This document shows, one piece after another, positions 2,706 to 16,762 of a DNA stretch of 64,000 nt (positions within the stretch are counted from its first letter, which is position 1; each line of letters begins with the position of its first letter). A program made the position numbers and the translations under genes. The stretch covers positions 169,464 to 233,463 of the forward strand of contig CAVRJV010000013.1 in NCBI GenBank assembly GCA_963721485.1. The letters run 5' to 3'. The notes below the pieces were generated by a model. The model saw only the letters and a program-made list of their open reading frames with translations. It made no database searches and was not told the origin of the DNA. This DNA is from an uncultured delta proteobacterium (lineage in GTDB: Bacteria > Desulfobacterota > Binatia > Binatales > Binataceae).

Positions 2706-5288
2706 TCACTTCTCTTGCTTAAGGCGGGAGGCGAGGCGGGCGAGGGCGTTTAGGGCGTCCATCGGGGTCATGCGCTCGAGATCGAGTGCGCGCAGTTCGT
2801 CGACGATGCGTTCTTCGCGTGGAGAGAAGAGGCCGAGTTGGGGCGCGGGGGATTTTGGCACGGCGGTCGCGCGCGATTCGCGGCATCCCGGCCTCGTCGA
2901 GTTCGCCTTGTTCGAGGTTGGCCAGAATCTCTCGTGCGCGGGTGATGATCGAATCGGGCAATCCGGCCAGCCGCGCCACTTCGATTCCGTAGCTGCGCGA
3001 TGCCGGCTGCTCGATCACGCGGCGCAGAAAAATCACCTCGTCGCCCCATTCGCGCACCGCCATGCTGAGGTTCTTGACCCGCGGACGCTCGCGCGCGAGG
3101 TCGGTCAGCTCGTGGAAGTGCGTCGCGAACAGTACTTTGGCGCGGGTCTGATCGTGCAGGTACTCGGCGACGGCCCACGCGATCGCGAGGCCGTCGAAAG
3201 TGCTGGTGCCGCGGCCGACTTCGTCGAGCAGCAGCAGGCTGCGCTCCGACAGGCCCTTGAGCAGGCGCGCCGTCTCGCTCATCTCGACCATGAAGGTGGA
3301 TTCGCCGCGGCGAAGTTCGTCGCGCGCGCCGATTCGCGTCAGCACGCGATCGATTAGCCCGATCGTCGCCTCGGCGGCGGGAACGAAGCTGCCGATTTGC
3401 GCCATGATCGCAATCAGCGCGACCTGGCGGAGATAGGTCGACTTGCCGGCCATGTTGGGGCCGGTGATCAGCAGGATTTGGCGCGTGTCGGGCTCGGCGT
3501 CGAGGTCGTTGGGCACGAACTCGCCCGCGCGCATCCCGGCTTCGAGCACCGGATGGCGTCCGTCGCGCACGCGAATCCGCAGGCCGGTGTTGATCTTCGG
3601 GCGCACGTAGCCGCGATGCCGCGCGACTTTGGCCAGCGACATCACCGCGTCGAATTCGCCAACGGCGCGAGCGGTTTCGAGGATCATCGCGGCGTGCGAC
3701 TGCAGGTCGCGCAGCAGCTTGGTGAAGATCTGCAGCTCGAGTTCCTTGAGCGCCGATTCTGCTGTGAGGATCTTTGCGCTCGAGTTCCTTGAGCGCCGGC
3801 GTGGTGAAGCGCTCGGCGCTGACCAGCGTCTGCTTGCGCTCGTAGTCGGCCGGCACGCGCTCGAGATTGGGCTTGGTCACCTCGATGTAGTAGCCGAAGA
3901 TATTGTTGTAGCGGACCTTGAGCGATGGAATCGCGGTGCGCTCGCGCTCGGTCGCTTCCAGCTTCGCGATCACGCCGCGCGCGCCCGAGGCGAGGCCGCG
4001 CAGTTCATCGACCTCGGCACTCAGGCCCGCGCGAATAACGTTGCCGTCGCGCGGATTCACCGGCGGTTCGTCGGACAGCGTCGCCGCGATTTGCGCGACC
4101 AGCGCGGGCATCGGCGAGATTCGCGCGACCTGCTCGCGGATAAGCGGGCTCTTGAGCGCGCCCATCGCCTGTTTGAGTGAGTCGGCCGCCGCAGAGCGCG
4201 TCGCCGAGGCGCAGGCAATCGCGCGGCGACGCGCGCATCGCGCCGATTCGTCCCGCCAGCCGCTCGAGGTCGCCGATGCGCTTCAACGATTCCGCGCAGC
4301 GTGCCGCCCAGGTCGGCGTCGAAGAGCTCTTCGAGCGCGTCGTGCCGCGCGTGAATCGCGTCGAGCGCGAGCAGCGGATAGATGATCCAGTTGCAAGCGT
4401 GCGCGCGCCGACCGCAGTCAGCGTCTCATCGAGAATCGACAGCAGCGAGCCCCTTGCGCGCGCCGTCGGTCGAGGCAATCAGCTCGAGATGCCGCCGCGT
4501 GGTCTCATCCACCACCATGTACTCGGCGATTCGGTAGAGGCGCGGCGCCGCGATATGCGCGAGGTCGCGGCCGAAGGTTTCTTCGACGTAGAGCAGCGCG
4601 ATTCCCGCCGTGTGCGCGATCGATTCGCTCAACTCGGTCGCAGCGCTCGCGAACCGATTCGAGAACGCCGCAGTCGCTCGGTCGGCGCCGAAGCGATTCG
4701 TGATCGAGCATCGTCTGAGGACAGTTCAGATCCTTGAGCAGCGCGCTCAACTCACCGTCCCGCGCGGCGATTACGATTTCGCGCGGCGCGATGCGCGCGA
4801 TTTCCTCGCACAGCGTCGTAGCCTCGCGAACTCTGCGTCACGAGGAACTCGCCGGTCGATACGTCGAGCGCCGCAAGCGCGAAGCCTGTCGCTTCCGCGC
4901 CTGTAACCGCGACCAGGTAGCTCTTCTCCGCCGCCGTCAGCACCATCTCTTCGCCGACGGTGCCGGGCGTGATCACGCGGACGATTTGCCGCGGCATCAG
5001 TTTCGGAGTTTTAGGATCGGGCGTGCCTTGCTCGCAGATCGCGACCTTGTGGCCGGCCTTCAGCAGCTTGGCGATGTAAGGTTCCGCACAATGGTAGGGC
5101 ACGCCGCACAGCGGCACGCCGTCCTTGTTGCGCGAGGTGAGTTGGATATCAAGCACGCGCGCGCCGACTTCAGCGTCCTCGAAGAACATCTCGTAGAAAT
5201 CGCCGAGGCGGAAAAACAGGATCGCGTCGGGGACGCGCTGCTTGACGCTCAGGTACTGCGCGATGAGGGGTGTTTGCTTGACTGCCAC
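2706..5288 (-). CDS. mutS: DNA mismatch repair protein MutS, frame-interrupted (at least 5 frame changes)
   Basis: The N-terminus MAVKQTPLIAQYLSVKQRVPDAILFFRLGDFYEMFFEDA is in ORF 4752..5288. Middle domains are spread over ORFs 4505..4750, 4426..4632, 4005..4478 and 2768..4165. The ATPase domain (GPNMAGKST, DEVGRGTS, ATHFHEL) is in ORF 2719..3687. The C-terminus ..MTPMDALNALARLASRLKQEK* ends at 2706. Confidence 0.9.
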
Positions 5289-5763
5289 TGACGCGATTGC
5301 GCCTCACAATAGCCGTGGCGGACGAAATGGGCAAAACTGCATATGGGGCGCATCCGGGGCCGGCGCAATGACAAAAGGCGGCGCGTCCACTCTTCGCGCC
5401 CGATGTTAGAGCGATAATAGGTTGGTCTGCTAATGACGCGCGCGCCTTTTTCATCAACGGCACGAAATCAGTCTCGTCGAAGGCACCCGGAAGGCTTATG
5501 TCCTTGTCGCCTAAATGCACGCCTAGCTGGCTGGCATCCTTTTGGAGTTGCTCCATTAGCAGATCATAGAACCTGATCACGCAGTCTTCGTTTTCGACCA
5601 TCGCGCGACCCCACTCTGCGAACGCCACCGAGTGCTGACCACTCAGATATTCGAAAAGTTGAGACCATTGGTCGGCGGTCGCCTCTCTTGCAAATGGAGG
5701 TCTCCCGCTATATGCGGCTGCGAGTTGTTGATTCGTCAACTTCTCAATTCTGGACTTATCCAT
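5170..5763 (-). CDS. hypothetical small helical protein (cassette gene 4); 3' end uncertain
   Basis: ATG 5763 is preceded by GGAGG with a 7-nt spacer (MDKSRIEKLTNQQLAAAYSG..). The lower-GC coding signal fades near 5400. The frame stays open to 5170, inside mutS, which is probably not real. A terminator-like hairpin lies at 5380-5400. Confidence 0.5.
   Translation of the reverse strand: MDKSRIEKLTNQQLAAAYSGRPPFAREATADQWSQLFEYLSGQHSVAFAEWGRAMVENEDCVIRFYDLLMEQLQKDASQLGVHLGDKDISLPGAFDETDFVPLMKKARASLADQPIIALTSGAKSGRAAFCHCAGPGCAPYAVLPISSATAIVRRNRVSGSQANTPHRAVPERQAARPRRDPVFPPRRFLRDVLRGR
5366..5400 (-). terminator. possible intrinsic terminator after the cassette
   Basis: On the minus strand the sequence reads GGCGCG-AAGAGTGGA-CGCGCC followed by GCCTTTTGTCATT. 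The stem is short (6 bp, all GC). Confidence 0.3.
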
Positions 5764-5826
5764 CGAGATTCCTCCGCACAGATCGAATAGCTCATAACTG
5801 TACTGAGTCCCACCCAAGTTGACCGG

Positions 5827-6810
5827 CTATAAAGGATGCTCCTCGACTGGATTCTCCGTGGAGAAAACATGGAAACCACCGAGGTGCAGACCCAAGTTGA
5901 AACGCTGATCGAGGCCGAACTCTAAGTAGTCGCCAAAGTCCGCGGCGCTGGTCACTCGCGTCCCAAGGATTGTAGACTTGATGAAATCTAGAGTGCAGGG
6001 TGCACCTTCGACGTTCTTCACGCATGTTGGAGCGGCCAGCGGCGTCACGTTAAGCTCGATTCCCTGGCCGAACTCGGCGCGGCTTCCTGTGAAGCGGCAT
6101 ATAACCTCCTCCGAAAGTTCCATCATCGTCGTACCGTCCTCTGCTGCAACGAGGTTCTCAACCGCATGCCCGGCGAGGCAGGAGTACATCTCGCCGAAAG
6201 ACGACACCCAACCCTGCGGAAAAATGAAGTAACGCCCCTCTCGCGTCACTTCCTCGTGGCCCTCGAAATCCGAAACAAGCGAATAAATGAAATCGAAAAA
6301 AGCGGGTGCCGTGGCCAAATCGGCGAACTGAAGCCGCACTCGCGCGCGAACACCGATAAGGCTGCGCTCGAGCATGCGAAACACAGTGTCCGGCATAAAG
6401 GCTAACTGACGCCCCTTAAGCGGCGGAATCAATCCCATGTTATGCGACGTGGCCCAGGATTCGCAGCCGCCGCTAAAGCCCATAGGCGAAACCAACAGCC
6501 CGAGATAAAGAGTTCCCATCGAATACTTGTTCATTGTGCGCACAACGGCAGCCCACTCCTGCACATGCGCGGGCTCCGCGCGCCTTGACAGTTCCTTGCA
6601 ACTCACGAGCAGCGTCACTTTAGGGTCGCTGAGCAACTCCGCGACCAAAACATCCACCTCTTTTCTCGGCGGCCCCTTGAAGGCTGCGACCTCCGGAAAC
6701 AGAGCGCTCTCGACCTGCACGGTTTTATTATGCTGCACTTCGACGGACGGCCCCAGAATCTTTCGGGCAATCTCGAAGCAGCGTTGTTCGAGTTCATTCT
6801 TAAAGTTCAT
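5827..6810 (-). CDS. Mrr-like PD-(D/E)xK restriction-endonuclease-fold N-domain fused to an unknown C-terminal domain (cassette gene 3)
   Basis: This is an intact 327-aa ORF. The N-terminal ~130 aa follow the Mrr catalytic-domain pattern: FEIARKILG .. EVDVLVAE (D53) .. TLLVSCKE (S70-C-K72) .. GLLVSPMGFSGGCESWATSHNMGLI. Residues ~130-327 carry no motif I recognise. Its ATG overlaps the stop of the upstream gene (ATGA at 6807-6810). Confidence 0.7.
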   Translation of the reverse strand: MNFKNELEQRCFEIARKILGPSVEVQHNKTVQVESALFPEVAAFKGPPRKEVDVLVAELLSDPKVTLLVSCKELSRRAEPAHVQEWAAVVRTMNKYSMGTLYLGLLVSPMGFSGGCESWATSHNMGLIPPLKGRQLAFMPDTVFRMLERSLIGVRARVRLQFADLATAPAFFDFIYSLVSDFEGHEEVTREGRYFIFPQGWVSSFGEMYSCLAGHAVENLVAAEDGTTMMELSEEVICRFTGSRAEFGQGIELNVTPLAAPTCVKNVEGAPCTLDFIKSTILGTRVTSAADFGDYLEFGLDQRFNLGLHLGGFHVFSTENPVEEHPL

Positions 6811-7190
6811 CTGAACACCTTTTCACCCGAGGCCAACACCATCCCCGGTTCAAGCTTCTCGGCCCGAAGCTTCCTCAGGGTGTCGCCATCCCGAATTACG
6901 AAAACAGCGTCTGCGGTGACCGAAAATACTTTTGCTCCAATCTGCTTGCGAATCACCCGGACGGGAAATCGGGGGCGCGAAATCTGAATGACAGGATTCG
7001 CGATGAACTCCCCGCTGTCAGTCGGACTCATCTCGTAAATGTCTAGACCGCCGACGTAGATAACAACGCCAACATCGTCATCGACCAAAATCCGCCCGCC
7101 ATCGCGTCGGAGCCCATCGACCAGAACATCGACATCCACGGACTTCCCGCTGCTGTCGACCAGCGTCACCTGTTCCTTTGGGATCGCCAT
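6807..7190 (-). CDS. hypothetical small beta-rich protein (cassette gene 2)
   Basis: A 127-aa protein starts at ATG 7190 (MAIPKEQVTLVDSSGKSVDVDVLVDG..), 1 nt after the stop of gene 1. The computed ORF 6807..7349 extends upstream, but that part overlaps gene 1 and looks non-coding. No family was recognised. Confidence 0.6.
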   Translation of the reverse strand: MAIPKEQVTLVDSSGKSVDVDVLVDGLRRDGGRILVDDDVGVVIYVGGLDIYEMSPTDSGEFIANPVIQISRPRFPVRVIRKQIGAKVFSVTADAVFVIRDGDTLRKLRAEKLEPGMVLASGEKVFR

Positions 7191-7191
7191 A

Positions 7192-7530
7192 TCACTTTTT
7201 CCGGTTTGCGATTTTCCCGCGAACCTCCGCCAGGATTGACTCGCGTTGCTGCTCCGATAGCTGGCTTGGGTTTGGCTGAGAGCTACCCTGCACCGGCAGC
7301 AGCCTCGGATCCCCTTTCTCGTCTCCGCCGATGACGTAACCGGGATCACCCTCGATAACCATCATCCGAATCCGCGATTCGCACCTAGGACAAATCACGT
7401 ACTCATCCTCGAAAGGAGGCATAATCGTGACAACGCCACCACAGTTGCAATTGAGCGGAAACGGCTTCGCACCCTCCAGAGCAGCGCCGGCCACAAAGGT
7501 ATACAAATCAAATTCCATTTTCTTAGGCAT
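7192..7530 (-). CDS. hypothetical zinc-ribbon-like protein with basic C-terminal tail (cassette gene 1)
   Basis: This is an intact 112-aa ORF. It has four Cys arranged as C28-x-C30 .. C47-x-x-C50 (LNCNCGG .. ICPRCES). These are followed by a polar low-complexity stretch and the tail ILAEVRGKIANRKK. Confidence 0.6.
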   Translation of the reverse strand: MPKKMEFDLYTFVAGAALEGAKPFPLNCNCGGVVTIMPPFEDEYVICPRCESRIRMMVIEGDPGYVIGGDEKGDPRLLPVQGSSQPNPSQLSEQQRESILAEVRGKIANRKK

Positions 7531-7908
7531 GGGCGATCTCTCAGACCCGGAATCAATATAGTGCTTCAGCGCCCATTCTACCTCGATTCACCAGGCCGCG
7601 CGCCGCCTCTTCGGGCTTGCACCGACCTCCAGAGACCCCGCCGTCATCTCAAACCGCAGCCCCGGCCACCGCTCGCGCATCCGCAAGAGCGCGATCCAAG
7701 TCGACCAATCCTCGCTGATGAAACTGAAGGCCACGACCGGCTCAGTCCCGTTCGGTCTTCGCGCCGCTGCCCATCGACGAGGGGCGCAAATAGTAAGCGC
7801 CGCACGCCCACTTTTCGCTTTGCCGAATACATCTCGATTTACTATGGTGCGGGTGTTAAGCAGGCACTAACGTCACAGCGACACATCACCGACAGGAGAT
7901 TAGGAAAA

Positions 7909-9427
7909 ATGGCATCAGCATCAGCTTCATTGGAGTCCGCCACTCGCGGCGCCAAGTCGAGCGCAGCACTTGAGTTCCTCAAGAGCTCGCCCAAAAAACT
8001 TCTCATCAACGGCAAATGGGTGCCGTCGAAGTCCGGCAAAACTTTCGAGACCCTCAACCCGTCCAACGAGCAGGTGCTCGCGCTCGTCGCCGAGGGCGAC
8101 AAGGCCGACGTGGATGAGGCCGTCAAGCATGCGCGCAAGGCCTACGAGGAAGGCAAGTGGGCGAGCTTGAGCCCGCACGCGCGCACGCACTTCCTGCTGA
8201 AGATCGCGGAGCTAATCGATCAAGCATGCCGAGGAGCTGGCCGAGCTCGAGACGCTCGACAACGGCAAGCCGCTGTTCGAGTCGAAGAATATCGACATCC
8301 CCGGCGCGGCCGAGACTTTCCGCTACTACGCGGGCTTCGCGACCAAGATTTACGGCGAGACCAACCCGTCCGACCCCTCGATGTTCAACTACACGCTGCG
8401 CGAGCCGGTTGGCGTATGCGGACAGATCATCCCGTGGAACTTCCCGCTGCTGATGGCGGCGTGGAAGATTGCGCCCGCGCTCGCATGCGGCAACGTCGTC
8501 ATCCTGAAGCCCGCCGAGCAGACTCCGCTGACCGCGATTCGCCTCGGCGAGCTTATCTGCGAGGCGGGCCTGCCCGAGGGCGTCGTGCAAATTATCACGG
8601 GCTTCGGCCCCGGCGCCGGCAGCTCGATCGCCGAGCATCCCGACATCGACAAGGTCGCGTTCACCGGTTCGACTGAGGTCGGCAAGATTGATCCTGCAAG
8701 GCGTCGACCGGCAACCTGAAGCGCGTCTCGCTCGAACTCGGCGGCAAGTCGCCGAACATCATTTTCCCCGACGCTGACATGCCGTCGGCGGTGTTCGGCT
8801 CCGCGCTGGGCATCTTCATGAACCAGGGCCAGGTCTGCTGCGCCGGCTCGCGCGTGTTCGTGCAGGAGAGGGTGTACGACCAGTTCACCGATCGACTGTC
8901 GAAGATTGCCAAGCGGACTGACGCTCGGCAATCCGCTGGATCCCGACACCCGCATGGGCCCGCTCGTTTCCAAGGAGCAGCACGATCGCGTCAAGGGATA
9001 TCTGAAGACCGGCAAGGCGGAAGGCGCGACCGCCAAGACCGGCGGCGAGCCGGGCAAGCAGGAATCCGGCTACTTCATTCAGCCGACGGTTTTCACCGGC
9101 GTGAACAATCAGATGAAGATCGCGCGCGAGGAAATCTTTGGGCCGGTCGCCTCGGCGATCAAGTTCAAGGACGAGGCCGACGTCGTCCTCCAGGGCAACG
9201 ACACGACCTACGGCCTGGCGGCCGCCGTGTGGACCAAGGACATCAACCGCGCCCTCGGCGTCGCGCGCAAGCTGAAGGCGGGCACGGTCTGGATCAACAC
9301 CTACGGCCAGATCGATCCGATGTCTCCGTTCGGCGGCTACAAGCAGTCGGGCTTCGGCCGCGAGCTGGGCAAGTACGCGATCGATCTGTACACGCAGATC
9401 AAGTCGGTTTACGCGAAGATCGGATAG
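7909..9427 (+). CDS. NAD(P)-dependent aldehyde dehydrogenase, frame-interrupted (3 frame changes: ~8222, ~8690, ~8905)
   Basis: The start is ATG 7909, with AGGAGA upstream. The motifs [33 protein letters not shown] (catalytic Cys) and EEIFGPV are spread over four frames. The last segment ends ..[12 protein letters not shown] at 9427. Confidence 0.9.
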
Positions 9428-13125: not shown

Positions 13126-13789
13126 GTGTCATCGCGAAAGAAGCGGGCGCGATCGTGCTGGTCGGCGGGCAAAGCTCGCGGATGGGCCAGCCCAAGGCAG
13201 CGCTCGATTTCGGCGGCGTGCCGCTGCTCACGAGGATCGTCATCGAGCTGAAATGGTGGTTCGACGAGATTGTGATCGTCGCGGCGCCAGAGTCGGCGGA
13301 CAGCCTCGCATCGAAATTCCCGGATTGACGATCGTTCCACGACGAGACAGCGTTCGCCGGGCCGCTCGACGCGTTGCGGCGCGGCCTCGAATGCGCTCGA
13401 TCACGAAGTCGCGTTCGCCTGCTCGTGCGATCTGCCGCTGTTGAATTCCGACGTTGCGGCGAGATCTGGTCGCGATGCTCGATGACTTCGACGCGGTGAT
13501 TCCGGAAGTCGGCGGCAAGCTGCAGCCGCTGCACGCGGTCTATCGCAAGCATTGCGCAAATGCGATCGAGTCGCTCGCGGCGAGCGGCGAGAAGCGGCTA
13601 ACCGCCAGCGCTGGCCGCGATCAACGCGCGAAGGGTCGATCGAGCAGCGAGCTCAGAAAGATCGATCCGCAGCTCAACAGCTTCTTCAACGTGAACACGC
13701 CCGAGGACTATCGGCGCGCACTCAAGCTGCGGGGCCTGCGTGATCCTGACAGAGCCGAGGAGTGCGGGAAACTAACCCCGAACCCCTAA
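13126..13789 (+). CDS. mobA: molybdenum cofactor guanylyltransferase MobA-like, frame-interrupted
   Basis: Reading from GTG 13126 and adding one A to the A-run at 13137-13139 gives MSSRKEAGAIVLVGGQSSRMGQPKAAL. Later segments are FAGPLDAL, ACDLPLL and LQPLHAVY. The end ..NVNTPEDYRRALKL.. is in ORF 13454..13789. Confidence 0.7.
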
Positions 13790-13827
13790 CCCCTTCCCGA
13801 GAGGAAAGGGGAACCGGAGAGGAAGGC

Positions 13828-15349
13828 TTACGGCTTCTTCTCCCAGCGCAGGATCGGGCGGCGCGCGGCCTGCGCTTCGTCGACGCGCGAGACGGCAATG
13901 TCTGCGGCGCGTTCTTGACCCGCTCGGGATCGTTCAGCGCCTCGTCGTAAATCCGCTCCATCGCGTCGACGAAGTTGTCGAGGGTTTCTTTGCTCTCGGT
14001 CTCGGTCGGCTCGATCATCAGCGCGCCCGGCACCACCAGCGGGAAATAGATCGTCGGCGGATGGATTCCGAAGTCGAGCAGGCGCTTGGCGATATCGAGC
14101 GTGCTCACGTCGGCGCGCTTTTCGAGATCGTGCGACAGCACGCATTCATGCATCGAGGGCTCGCCGGTCGCGCTGGGAAAATGCGGTTGCAGCCGCTTGC
14201 GCACGTAGTTGGCGCCGAGGATCGCGAGCCGGCTCGCCATCCCGAGGCCGTCGCCGCCGAGCGCGAGGATATACGCGTAGGCGCGCACGAGCATCCCGAA
14301 GTTGTTGTGAAACGATCGCAGCCGCCCGATCGAATCGGGCCGCTCGGCGTCGAATTCGTAGCCGGCCTCGGCATGCTTCAAGCGCGGCATCGGCAGGAAC
14401 GGCTCGAGATGCTTTTTCACCGCGACCGGACCCGCGCCCGGACCGCCGCCGCCGTGCGGAGTCGAGAAGGTCTTGTGCAGATTGAGCTGCACGATATCCG
14501 CGCCCATGTGGCCCGGCTTGGCGACGCCGAGCAGCGCGTTCATGTTGGCGCCGTCGAGGTAGAGCAGCGCGCCGCGCTCATGCAGCGCCGCCGCGATCTC
14601 CTGGATCTCGCGGCTCGAAAATTCCCAGCGTGTTCGGATTGGTGACCATCATCGCGGCGACGTCGTCGCTCACCAGCCGGCGAACCTCGGCCGCTTCCAG
14701 ATAGCCGCGCCGATTCGACTTCGCGACCATCACCTCGAAGCCCGCCAGCGTGCAGCTCGCCGGATTGGTGCCATGCGCGGTGTCGGGAATGATCACCTTG
14801 TGCCGCGCTTCGCCGCGCTTGCGATGGTACGCGCGGACCATCAGCAGGCCCGTCAGCTCGCCTTGCGCGCCGGCCGCGGGATGCAGCGACACCGCGTCCA
14901 TGCCGGTGATTTCGGCGAGCGCCGCTTCCATCCGCGCGATCAGTTCGAGCGCGCCCTGCGCCAGATGCGCCGGCGTCGCCGGATGCAGTGCCGGCAAGAC
15001 CCGGCAGCGCCGCCAGCTCGTCGTTGACCACCGGATTGTACTTCATCGTGCACGAGCCGAGCGGATAGAACTGGAGCGCCTGCGCGAAGTTGAGCTGCGA
15101 CAGGCGCAGGAAATGACGCAGCACCTGCGGCTCGCTGAGCTCGGGAAAGCCGGGGAGGTCCTCGCGGCAGAGTTCGGCGCCGAGCAGTTCAGCGCCGCGC
15201 CGATCGCCGGCGGCGCGCGGCGACAGATCGGTGCCGCGGCGGCCTTCGGATGAAAGCTCGAAAATCAGCGGCACGCCTGCCACCGGCTCGGTTCGATCGA
15301 GCGTCGAAGGAGTCTCAGGCCACCGCGACGCGGACGATTCTGCCCGCAC
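13828..15349 (-). CDS. gcvPB: glycine dehydrogenase (aminomethyl-transferring) subunit 2, frame-interrupted
   Basis: The fragments carry LSQLNFAQALQFYPLGSCTMKYNP, GMDAVSLHPAAGAQGE, IIPDTAHGTNPAS and NLHKTFSTPHGGGGPG (PLP lysine). The C-terminus ..VSRVDEAQAARRPILRWEKKP* ends at 13828. Confidence 0.9.
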
Positions 15350-15355
15350 TCGCCA

Positions 15356-16713
15356 TCACCGCACCTCCGCCAATTGCCGCCGCACAGCGCGGCCGAACTC
15401 GTCGCCGCGATTCATCTCGGTGACCGAGACCAGCAGCGCGTCGGAAAGTTCGGGATAGTCGTCGCCGAGCGCGACGCCCGCCAGGATCTGCTTGCGCTCT
15501 GCCGCTTCCAGAGCGCCGCGGGGTTCGCGAGCCGCATCACGAACTCGTTGAAGAACGGTCCCGAGAATCGGCGGCGAATGCCCGCCGCCTCGAGCACATC
15601 GGCCGCGCTGATGCGCCAGCTCGACGTTGCGCTCGGCCAGCTCGCGCAGTCCGCTGCGCGCCCATCAGCGAGAGATAGACCGTCGCCGCCAGCGCGCACA
15701 GCGAATGATTGGTGCAGATGTTGGAGGTCGCGCGCTCGCGGCGGATATGCTGCTCGCGCGTGGCGAGCGTCAGGCAGAAAGCGCGGCGACCGTCGCGATC
15801 GCGAGTCTCGCCGACCAGCCGCCCCGGCATCTGGCGCAGATGCGCCATGCGCGCCGCCATGAAGCCGACGCCGGGTCCGCCGAATTGCAGCGGCAGGCCG
15901 AAACTTTGACCCTCGCCGACGGCGATATCGACGCCGAGTTCGCCCGGCGCGCGCAGCAGGCCCAGCGCGATACCCTCGGCCGTCGCCGAAATCGCGAGCG
16001 CGCCCGCGCGATGCGTGATCTCGGCGATCGCGCCGAGCGGCTCGATGATGCCGAACGCGTTGGGATAGCCGGCGACCGTGCACAGCAGCCGATCGTTGGC
16101 GACACGTTCGAGCGCGGCGATGTCGGTCGCGCCGGTCGCGTCGTCGAACGGCACCTCGACGATCTCGAGTCCGTGCAGCGCGCTCAGGTAGGTGCGGATG
16201 GTCGCGCGATAGTCGGGCCACAGCGCGCGCGACAGCGCGACGACGCGAGCGCTTGGGCATCAACCGCCGCGCCATCAGCACCGCCTCGGCCGCGGCCGAC
16301 GCGCCGTCGTACATGCTGGCGTTGGCGACCTCCATCCCGGTGAGCTGCGTGATCAGCGTTTGAAATTCGAAAATCGCCTGCGTGGTGCCCTGGCTCGCCT
16401 CGGCCTGATACGGCGTATAGCTGGTCGCGAACTCGGCGCGCGCGATGACGGCGCGCACGGCGGCGGGCACATAATGGCGATAGTAGCCGGCGCCGAGGAA
16501 GCTGGCGAAGCCCGACGCGCCCGTGTTGCGCGCCGCCAGCGCAGAAATCTCGTGCGACGACATCGGCTTCGCTGCGGCCCGCGGCGAGAGTTGATCGTCG
16601 CGCGTCGCGCGCAGATTGGCCGGCACGTGCGCGATCAGATCGTCGAGATGCTTCGCGCCGATCGTCTCGAGCATCGCCGCGACGTCGCCCTCGGTATGTG
16701 GCATGAATCTCAT
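15356..16713 (-). CDS. gcvPA: glycine dehydrogenase subunit 1, frame-interrupted
   Basis: The fragments carry MRFMPHTEGDVAAMLETIG.., SYTPYQAEASQGTTQAIFEFQTLI, GEGQSFGLPLQFGGPGVGFMA and TREQHIRRERATSNICTN. The end ..RQLAEVR* is at 15356. Confidence 0.9.
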
Positions 16714-16762
16714 CGAATCAACTCGTCCTTCGCTGCCGCCTCCGCTTCGTCCCACAATTCAA

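Follow-up and report, generated by a model that had tools for sequence, protein, structure and literature searches.

Gene C, an open reading frame (ORF) of 327 codons in a 64,000-nucleotide stretch of the genome of an uncultured Binataceae bacterium (contig CAVRJV010000013.1; the window, below, is this whole stretch), encodes a two-domain protein that we propose to be the nuclease effector of a mobile three-gene defence or conflict cassette, an overall model to which we give about an even chance of being correct. The proposal builds on the conserved active-site layout of the N-terminal domain, the strict linkage of gene C to two small orphan genes, denoted A and B, and the patchy spread of the trio across phyla. 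The gene and its parts are as follows.

5827-6810, minus strand: gene C, 327-residue two-domain protein, predicted nuclease effector
6421-6810, minus strand: gene C residues 1-130, PD-(D/E)xK nuclease domain, Mrr_cat/RRG7-like, predicted from AlphaFold2 (AF2) models, Foldseek matches and Pfam matches of relatives
6235-6420, minus strand: gene C residues 131-192, helical linker with predicted helices at about 140-161 and about 170-182 in AF2 models
5830-6234, minus strand: gene C residues 193-327, acidic beta-rich domain with a predicted NFACT-N/Fpg-N-like fold

A narrow family under constraint

The ORF is intact and begins with ATG, the start codon sharing an ATGA overlap with the stop codon of the upstream gene B. 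Its homologues form 276 clusters at 60-84% identity, nearly all about 326 residues long and all labelled 'hypothetical'. An exhaustive hidden Markov model (HMM) scan of 1.84 billion representatives recovered only 79 clusters, mostly fragments of gene C family members, and hence the family is narrow and sharply delimited. The gene is real and under strong constraint, far beyond chance. Conservation was read from two alignments, one of 34 sequences of the family (A1) and the other of 24 sequences reaching down to 37-48% identity (A6), to which were added three remote relatives, P0189, P0191 and P0195, that have only the N-terminal domain in common with gene C (17-23% identity).

The nuclease domain is Mrr-like but not Mrr in the strict sense

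The AF2 model of gene C was built on 34 sequences (mean predicted local distance difference test score, pLDDT, 82; predicted template modelling score, pTM, 0.60). Its N-terminal domain consists of helix 6-19, strands 25-34, 49-61 and 64-71, helix 80-96, strand 100-107, helix 116-122 and strand 125-128, that is, an alpha-beta-beta-beta-alpha-beta core in which D53 lies within strand 2 and S70-C71-K72 closes strand 3. Foldseek matches of this domain in the PDB include AF1548 (1y88), EndoMS/NucS (5gke, 2vld), Cap4, EcoO109I and a Cas4-family protein, and those in BFVD include several phage 'restriction endonuclease' proteins, one Mrr-domain protein and one PD-(D/E)XK protein. When 24 diverse members of the family were scanned singly against Pfam at E<=0.01, Mrr_cat (PF04471) was found in 8 (best E 4e-5) and RRG7 (PF10356), which we take to be a related Mrr-like family, in 12 (best E 6.8e-5). 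Four divergent members exceed the gathering threshold of Mrr_cat, 21 bits: P0132 with 23.5, P0127 and P0144 with 22.6 each, and P0154 with 22.2 bits. None of the models, structural matches or Pfam matches of relatives places the domain outside the PD-(D/E)xK fold, and we consider it very likely that residues 1-130 are a divergent Mrr_cat/RRG7-like member of that fold.

A previous sequence-only reading of this DNA had called the domain Mrr-type. The PD-(D/E)xK fold and the affinity to Mrr_cat and RRG7 stand, but two of the three synapomorphies of Mrr are missing. As defined in a study of LlaGI and Mrr (PMC2790908), motif I of Mrr is F-E in helix 1; motif II pairs the catalytic Asp with another Asp, 100% conserved, that precedes it by four residues and is linked to it through a Gly (D-x-G-x-D); and motif III is Q-x-K. 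In the gene C family, F12 (or Y) of motif I is conserved, with E13 giving way to L, A or D among divergent members. There is no D-x-G-x-D, position 49 being occupied by R, A, T, S or K with no Gly between, and the conserved residues around motif II are instead G46-P-P-x-K/R50-E51-x-D53. In place of Q-x-K, the family has S70-C71-K72, and the remote relatives have S-G-K or S-I-K. Lacking both the second Asp of motif II and Q-x-K, the domain is thus Mrr-like rather than Mrr in the strict sense, with which it has in common the fold and the order of elements (F-E helix, Asp strand, x-K strand, helix, and strand with the 'GF..G/A' turn). The domain architectures differ as well, in that Mrr carries an N-terminal DNA-binding domain. 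Its nuclease motifs are located at residues 172-231 (PMC2790908), whereas in gene C, the nuclease domain is N-terminal.

A putative S-x-K active site with a candidate relocated acid

The codons of the putative active site are the following.

6787-6789, minus strand: E8, candidate motif I glutamate in helix 1
6652-6660, minus strand: E51-V52-D53 (6660-6652 in reading direction), motif II, including D53 of strand 2 as the candidate Asp for metal binding
6595-6603, minus strand: S70-C71-K72 (S70, 6603-6601; K72, 6597-6595), motif III, with Ser instead of the usual Glu, Asp or Gln
6556-6567, minus strand: H82-V83-Q84-E85, within the helix that follows motif III, with E85 as candidate for the relocated acid

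The motifs and residue numbers from which the sequence-only reading had started are all borne out by the translation of the ORF: CFEIARKILG contains F12, E13, A15, L19 and G20; KEVDVLV contains E51 and D53; LLVSCK is L67-L68-V69-S70-C71-K72; and GLLVSPMGFSGGCESWA is present, with G104 and G111-F112-S113. Whether the putative catalytic residues are conserved, which that reading had proposed to settle by aligning homologues, now has a clear answer, D53, S70 and K72 being invariant even at 17-23% identity. In A1, the invariant residues include E51, D53, S70, C71 and K72; in A6 together with the remote relatives, H27, N28, F44, P47, E51, D53, S70, K72, F112 and P130 are invariant. The acid of (D/E)-x-K, two positions ahead of the Lys, is absent, its place being taken by Ser70 in every member, and motif III of the remote relatives reads TSGK in P0191 and P0189 and MSIK in P0195. 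Because S70 is invariant in both alignments and in the remote relatives, the Ser is a fixed feature of the family and not a local mutation. E8 is conserved in each aligned sequence that covers the position, including the remote P0191 and P0195; E13 and E79 are not conserved, P0127 having L13 and P79, and P0132, A13 and S79. The helix after strand 3 holds the conserved string H82-V-Q84-E85-W86, in which the family has Glu at position 85 without exception, and P0189, P0191 and P0195 have Asp there (HVGDY, HVGDF).

A Ser in this place is known from functional enzymes. In several active type II restriction enzymes, namely, Cfr10I, NgoMIV, Bse634I, SsoII and PspGI, motif III has Ser, Thr or Gly in place of its acid, whose role falls to a Glu of the helix that follows (PMC3479162, PMC2790908). 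The site of Cfr10I is E71 / D134 / S188-V-K190 / E204; the carboxylate lies within a few angstroms (2.8) of the Ser and the motif II Asp; and the E204Q mutant retains 0.004% of the activity, compared with 4-12% in S188A (PMC3479162). Cfr10I and the gene C family have in common the Ser at the first position of motif III, a carboxylate in the next helix (a candidate in gene C), the motif I Glu and the motif II Asp. E204 lies 14 residues past K190 in Cfr10I, and E85 lies 13 residues past K72 in gene C, in helix 80-96. Judging by this spacing, the conserved set E8 / D53 / S70-x-K72 / E(D)85 seems to reproduce the Cfr10I layout. The similarity does not extend further: gene C has no detectable sequence relationship to the CCGG-family enzymes, and the A-B-C cassette includes no cognate methyltransferase.

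By analogy, then, S-x-K would be no sign of inactivity. The sequence-only reading had left the choice between a divergent active nuclease and a sensor, and the conserved acid at position 85 tips it towards the former. A complete conserved site under purifying selection argues for catalysis, and because the same layout works in the active Cfr10I, gene C is probably an active metal-dependent nuclease.

Apart from these motifs, the invariant H27-N28 pair of strand 1 (6727-6732, minus strand) is retained in the remote relatives as well; it is outside the three Mrr/PD-(D/E)xK motifs of PMC2790908 and appears to be a family-specific addition.

The C-terminal part

The remainder of the protein, about residues 130-327, had been described as motif-less. 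This holds for sequence motifs, as residues 130-327 have no match in Pfam or NCBIfam (E<=1), PHROG, PADLOC or a PDB profile search, but not for structure, a helical linker followed by a beta-domain being predicted. When residues 131-327 were modelled alone, the beta-rich domain (about 194-320) retained a pLDDT of 83-97; the confidence of the linker drops when it is modelled without the N-terminal domain. In the PDB, Foldseek gives the same leading group for the complete model and for the C-terminal part modelled alone, namely, the NFACT-N domains of NEMF (9gy4_Z, 3j92_u), RqcH (8s1u_H, 7aqc_R, 7as8_0), FBPS (5h3x), PavA (6pon) and Staphylococcus aureus FbpA (3doa), with probabilities of 0.99-1.0, E-values of 2e-3 to 1e-2 and TMq of 0.33-0.41 (197-residue query) over 113-136 columns. 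Over three independent searches, in each of which NFACT-N comes first, the E-values of its matches range from 8e-4 to 1e-2, with a root-mean-square deviation (rmsd) of 4-8 angstroms. MutM/Fpg is matched, too, with a probability of about 0.92, and BFVD independently yields a 'NFACT RNA-binding domain' protein of Megaviridae (rmsd 3.8 angstroms over 118 columns). On these models, an NFACT-N/Fpg-N-like fold of residues ~194-320 is somewhat favoured.

NFACT-N and the N-terminal domain of Fpg/MutM/Nei are regarded as homologous (Burroughs & Aravind 2014, PMC4075521). The catalytic N-terminal Pro of Fpg (PMC4075521) is missing in gene C, where the domain begins at about residue 190; given that the Fpg-like domain is internal to the polypeptide, a free N-terminal catalytic Pro is impossible. 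No match was found to a well-known enzyme that by itself would account for gene C. H2TH and the zinc finger, through which Fpg also binds DNA, have no counterpart in gene C, and NFACT-N has no known catalytic role. Compared with NFACT proteins, the C-terminal domain of gene C is internal or C-terminal in position and acidic, and the helix-hairpin-helix (HhH), coiled-coil and NFACT-R modules are missing. In the literature searched, we found no fusion of an NFACT-N-like domain with a restriction-type nuclease.

A strictly linked trio of genes

Gene C is preceded by two small genes on the same strand, within an islet of low G+C (GC) content.

7192-7530, minus strand: gene A, 112 residues, first gene of the cassette; four-Cys zinc ribbon C28-N-C30...C47-x-x-C50, with GDPGY and VQGS motifs
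6807-7190, minus strand: gene B, 127 residues, with the conserved C-terminal half RF..R.QIG...D..F...K.RA..L..G..L..GEKV
5308-7600, no strand: low-GC islet with genes A, B and C and ORF D, between mutS and an aldehyde dehydrogenase gene
5170-5763, minus strand: ORF D, 197 residues as read, in the low-GC islet; not among the conserved partners; its 3' end enters the start of mutS

Gene B begins 1 nt past the stop codon of gene A, and its own stop codon is in the 4-nt overlap with the start of gene C. In all 24 loci that have upstream sequence, tblastn locates A, B and C in identical order and spacing, with gene B always directly upstream of gene C, and the trio recurs in the loci fetched through individual proteins: this is strict three-gene synteny. 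Similarity between loci at the DNA level is limited to window positions 7530-5831, from the start of gene A to the stop of gene C, the flanks being unlike. The sizes of the three families are comparable, 496 clusters for A, 356 for B and 276 for C. Around the cassette, a search for flanking repeats, att sites and a conserved promoter found only short chance repeats and no promoter-like site.

In gene A, whose 496 clusters are all labelled 'hypothetical', the four Cys as well as GDPGY and VQGS are invariant across 22 aligned orthologues; its sole Pfam match, to Zn_ribbon_19, is weak (E=0.22), and there is no usable match in NCBIfam, PHROGs, PADLOC or a PDB profile search. The gene B clusters are all of about 127 residues (21 orthologues aligned), and no match was obtained in Pfam, PADLOC, PHROG or a PDB profile search. 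By eye, the C-terminal half of gene B is Hint- or SH3-like, and one weak NCBIfam match is to the archaeal PolII large subunit. A dozen or more of the listed gene B homologues (for example, P0262, P0266 and P0290) carry the JGI label 'cytochrome P450', which cannot be right for a protein of only 127 residues and presumably is a propagated mis-annotation.

The remote relatives P0189, P0191 and P0195 (L006:38-1096) form a tiny sister family with the same S-x-K domain (TSGK, MSIK, HVGD) and a different C-terminal part. Comparison of gene B with the C-terminal domain of P0191 and P0195 was not significant by BLASTP and gave hhalign E-values of 0.2 for P0191 and 0.017, over 85 columns, for P0195. 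These proteins may contain a B-like domain fused to the nuclease, a hint that we do not use as evidence. By eye, the gene downstream of P0191 has no obvious relation to A or B.

Three partner proteins had been counted originally, of which two, A and B, are conserved. The 197-residue ORF D was rejected as a third partner, having no homologue beside the trio at any other locus; it has no family match either. Its GC content is 54%, a GGAGG ribosome-binding site is present, and on an independent short-read contig, the ORF is likewise called from 5763. Its 3' end overruns the mutS coding region by 118 nt, and a frameshift may conceal the real stop.

Distribution and mobility

With one genome per species scanned, the gene C family is present in 25 of 185,579 species, and its hosts belong to Alpha- and Betaproteobacteria, Desulfobacterota, Acidobacteriota, Binatia, Spirochaetota, Verrucomicrobiota and Bacteroidota and include one Bathyarchaeota metagenome-assembled genome (MAG), the homologues over this host range being 38-70% identical to the protein of the window. 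Such patchy, cross-phylum spread requires horizontal transfer. The Bathyarchaeota locus (L030, on a 21-kb contig) is the sole one with an archaeal label; its trio is 56-62% identical to bacterial ones, with gene C frameshifted, and could be a recent transfer or a binning artefact. Two IMG/VR contigs carry the cassette, each at a contig end and with uninformative neighbours. The public runs that hold the sequence are soil metagenome DNA only.

In the window, the GC content of the islet is about 55%, compared with about 63-66% in the flanks; that of the trio itself is 55.8%, mutS having 66.1% and the aldehyde dehydrogenase gene 63.5%. An independent Logan short-read contig (L032) covers window positions 7980-5308, breaking at both islet borders, and the genes called on it agree with those of the window. 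Several genes of the window are split over 2-3 frames, namely, mutS (2719-5288, with ORF 4752-5288 encoding the N-terminus, 2768-4165 the middle and 2719-3687 the C-terminus), the aldehyde dehydrogenase gene (7930-9427), the glycine dehydrogenase gene gcvP (13722-16755) and the region 343-2218, a pattern that points to numerous indel errors of the assembly or to pseudogenes. Genes A, B and C are full length despite the split housekeeping genes nearby.

Elsewhere, the trio is found in mobile and defence-related settings. In Paraburkholderia acidipaludis, it resides in a region resembling an integrative and conjugative element (ICE), with DUF2958, DUF932, ParB_N, DUF736, RPA, ParA, DUF2840, a TraF-like S26 and DUF3363, and in a Syntrophorhabdaceae MAG, it adjoins TrwC/TrwB and an E2-ThiF-JAB gene. 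In L020 (43-11249), the trio is inserted within an Ssp phosphorothioate-defence locus, between SspH and SspC, possibly a useful natural context in which to study cooperation between systems. It directly follows a 1,530-residue type IIG restriction-modification (RM)/DrmMI-like protein in L021, and adjoins HmaC/DUF499, a DUF1156 methylase, an SNF2 helicase and HipA in L023. The 146 neighbouring ORFs also include AbiEii, AriA, MADS components, AIPR, integrases, IS66 and ImuB/UmuD. At three loci (L023:3315-5231, L016:3423-5261 and L002:5393-7231), a gene for a HipA_C-domain kinase of 612-638 residues immediately precedes gene A in the same orientation; the arrangement occurs in genomes of different phyla and may be an extended four-gene variant or reflect a co-transferred neighbour.

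Gene C is disrupted at several loci. It is interrupted by an IS3-family element (HTH_Tnp_1 and rve) in an uncultured Desulforhopalus (L022, 6900-8629) and by an ISL3-family transposase element in an alphaproteobacterial MAG (L024, 6804-8115). In these two loci with insertion sequences and in the frameshifted L030, A and B are intact and gene C alone is broken, a pattern that is expected if gene C is costly or toxic. In L031, gene C is truncated and gene B is decaying, too.

A model of the cassette and its alternatives

The mechanism that we infer from these observations, for catalysis and the part of E85 in it as well as for the roles of the C-terminal domain, A and B and for the defence function, is the following. 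Gene C would be a metal-dependent phosphodiesterase in which the second acid has shifted from strand 3 (S70-x-K72) to the next helix (E85). The C-terminal NFACT-N/Fpg-like domain would serve as the target-recognition or regulatory part, binding either a nucleic-acid feature, as NFACT-N/Fpg domains do, or A, B or an invader protein. A and B, co-translated with gene C, would be stoichiometric partners that form a complex with it and thereby restrain or target the nuclease. The cassette would move between defence islands and conjugative elements and act against invading DNA or, alternatively, as an abortive-infection or addiction toxin. In its most specific form, that of a new three-component immune system in which an NFACT-N/Fpg-like sensor sits on a restriction-type nuclease gated by A and B, the proposal is tentative, and we would sooner bet against it.

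Several observations weigh against the model. The window protein itself scores only 12.4 bits against Mrr_cat (E=0.18, residues 41-128 on profile positions 25-106), below the cut-off; the Foldseek E-values are weak throughout (for the N-terminal domain, at best about 7e-4 in BFVD and at least 1e-3 in the PDB), though the hits of this domain are consistent; and the AF2 models derive from a shallow alignment of 34 sequences (pTM 0.60 and 0.68). The position of E85 beside S70 and D53 is a candidate one, deduced from the sequence. The likeness of the C-terminal domain to NFACT-N finds no support at the sequence level, in Pfam (NFACT/FbpA, Fapy_DNA_glyco) or in the PDB profile search, and the domain is acidic, with a net charge between -1 and -11 in 20 of 21 members, an uncommon property in modules that bind nucleic acids. 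This acidity weakens the simple nucleic-acid-binding interpretation and makes protein binding, to A, B or an invader protein, possible. In PADLOC-DB v2.0.0, whose 5,027 models cover known and candidate defence systems, there is no match to A, B, C or D at E<=1, and the cassette is absent from 72,556 PLSDB plasmids and 50,697 INPHARED phages. Several loci, including that of this window and a Stellaceae locus, have ordinary metabolic neighbours, and the association with defence islands, drawn from individual neighbourhoods, is suggestive. Finally, a toxin-antitoxin (TA) module fits the same facts.

This last alternative, a TA or tripartite addiction module that stabilises mobile elements and has no dedicated anti-phage sensing, with C as the nuclease toxin and A (perhaps also an autorepressor) and/or B as antitoxin or chaperone, is the one to which we attach a modest but real probability. 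It would account for the translational coupling of small upstream genes to a larger nuclease gene, for the presence of the trio within ICEs and conjugative regions near the TA genes HipA and AbiEii, and for the three loci in which C alone is inactivated, there being no locus with an intact C beside a broken A or B, as would be expected of a C that is toxic once its partners are lost. However, typical type II TA modules are simpler than a two-domain toxin of 36 kDa with two partners, addiction modules are common on plasmids, including those of PLSDB, from all of which the cassette is absent, and the distinction itself is blurred, many TA-like modules being abortive-infection defence systems. 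Distinctly less probable is that the Ser has rendered the PD-(D/E)xK domain dead, leaving a DNA-binding or oligomerisation scaffold, a sensor, with effector activity elsewhere. Inactive PD-(D/E)xK domains that serve as binding modules exist, the motif III acid is missing in every member, and another activity might reside in A, B or the C-terminal domain; but the full set of invariant E8, D53 and K72 with an acid fixed at 85 is not what is expected of a dead domain, and the searches of A, B and C brought up no further enzymatic domain.

The resemblance of the C-terminal domain to the tRNA- and ribosome-binding NFACT-N of RqcH, NEMF and FbpA, its best structural matches, raises another scenario, in which this domain docks on tRNA or the ribosome and the nuclease cuts tRNA or rRNA, causing abortive infection; for McrBC-type restriction systems with PD-(D/E)xK nucleases, RNA has been predicted as the target (PMC11090510). 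Nonetheless, we find an RNA-directed gene C improbable, slightly more so than a dead one: the fold match is modest and unsupported by sequence, the domain is acidic, Mrr_cat-type domains are DNA nucleases where studied (PMC2790908), and the other NFACT modules (HhH, coiled coil, NFACT-R) are missing from the 327-residue protein. The location directly upstream of mutS in this window and the resemblance of the fold to the N-terminal domains of MutM/Fpg might be taken to indicate a housekeeping DNA-repair factor, but adjacency to mutS is unique to this window, the distribution of the low-GC insert, in only 25 of 185,579 species, largely refutes such a role, and an internal domain cannot provide the Fpg-type catalytic N-terminal Pro, so that we regard this explanation as very improbable.

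Relation to known systems and implications

The A-B-C trio resembles multi-gene nuclease defence systems in being a compact operon of a nuclease effector and small accessory proteins, patchily distributed, horizontally spread and located near Ssp, Hma, type IIG RM, AbiE, HipA and conjugation genes; unlike them, it includes no NTPase, methylase or known sensor domain. Restriction-type nucleases are the commonest effectors of bacterial immunity, and the way they are licensed varies by system. Taken singly, the ingredients of the cassette have precedents, whether the Mrr-like fold, the permuted S-x-K site or a nuclease effector accompanied by small proteins. What is new is the combination of a Mrr-like domain with a Cfr10I-type site, its fusion to an NFACT-N/Fpg-like domain, and the two strictly linked orphan proteins; in the model libraries and the literature searched, we found no matching combination or defence system.

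To our knowledge, NFACT-N/Fpg-like domains have been known so far only from ribosome quality control and base-excision repair. If the cassette is the three-component immune system outlined above, gene C would bring the first NFACT-N-like module into immunity, along with a new way of licensing a Mrr-like nuclease, and as either a defence or an addiction module, the cassette would add a sensing and regulatory logic that is new. With three genes in 1.7 kb, it could be dissected completely, and one of its hosts, Paraburkholderia acidipaludis NBRC 101816, is a named culture-collection strain. Even if gene C were only a divergent toxin, the family would still document the S-x-K motif with a helix-borne acid outside type II restriction enzymes.

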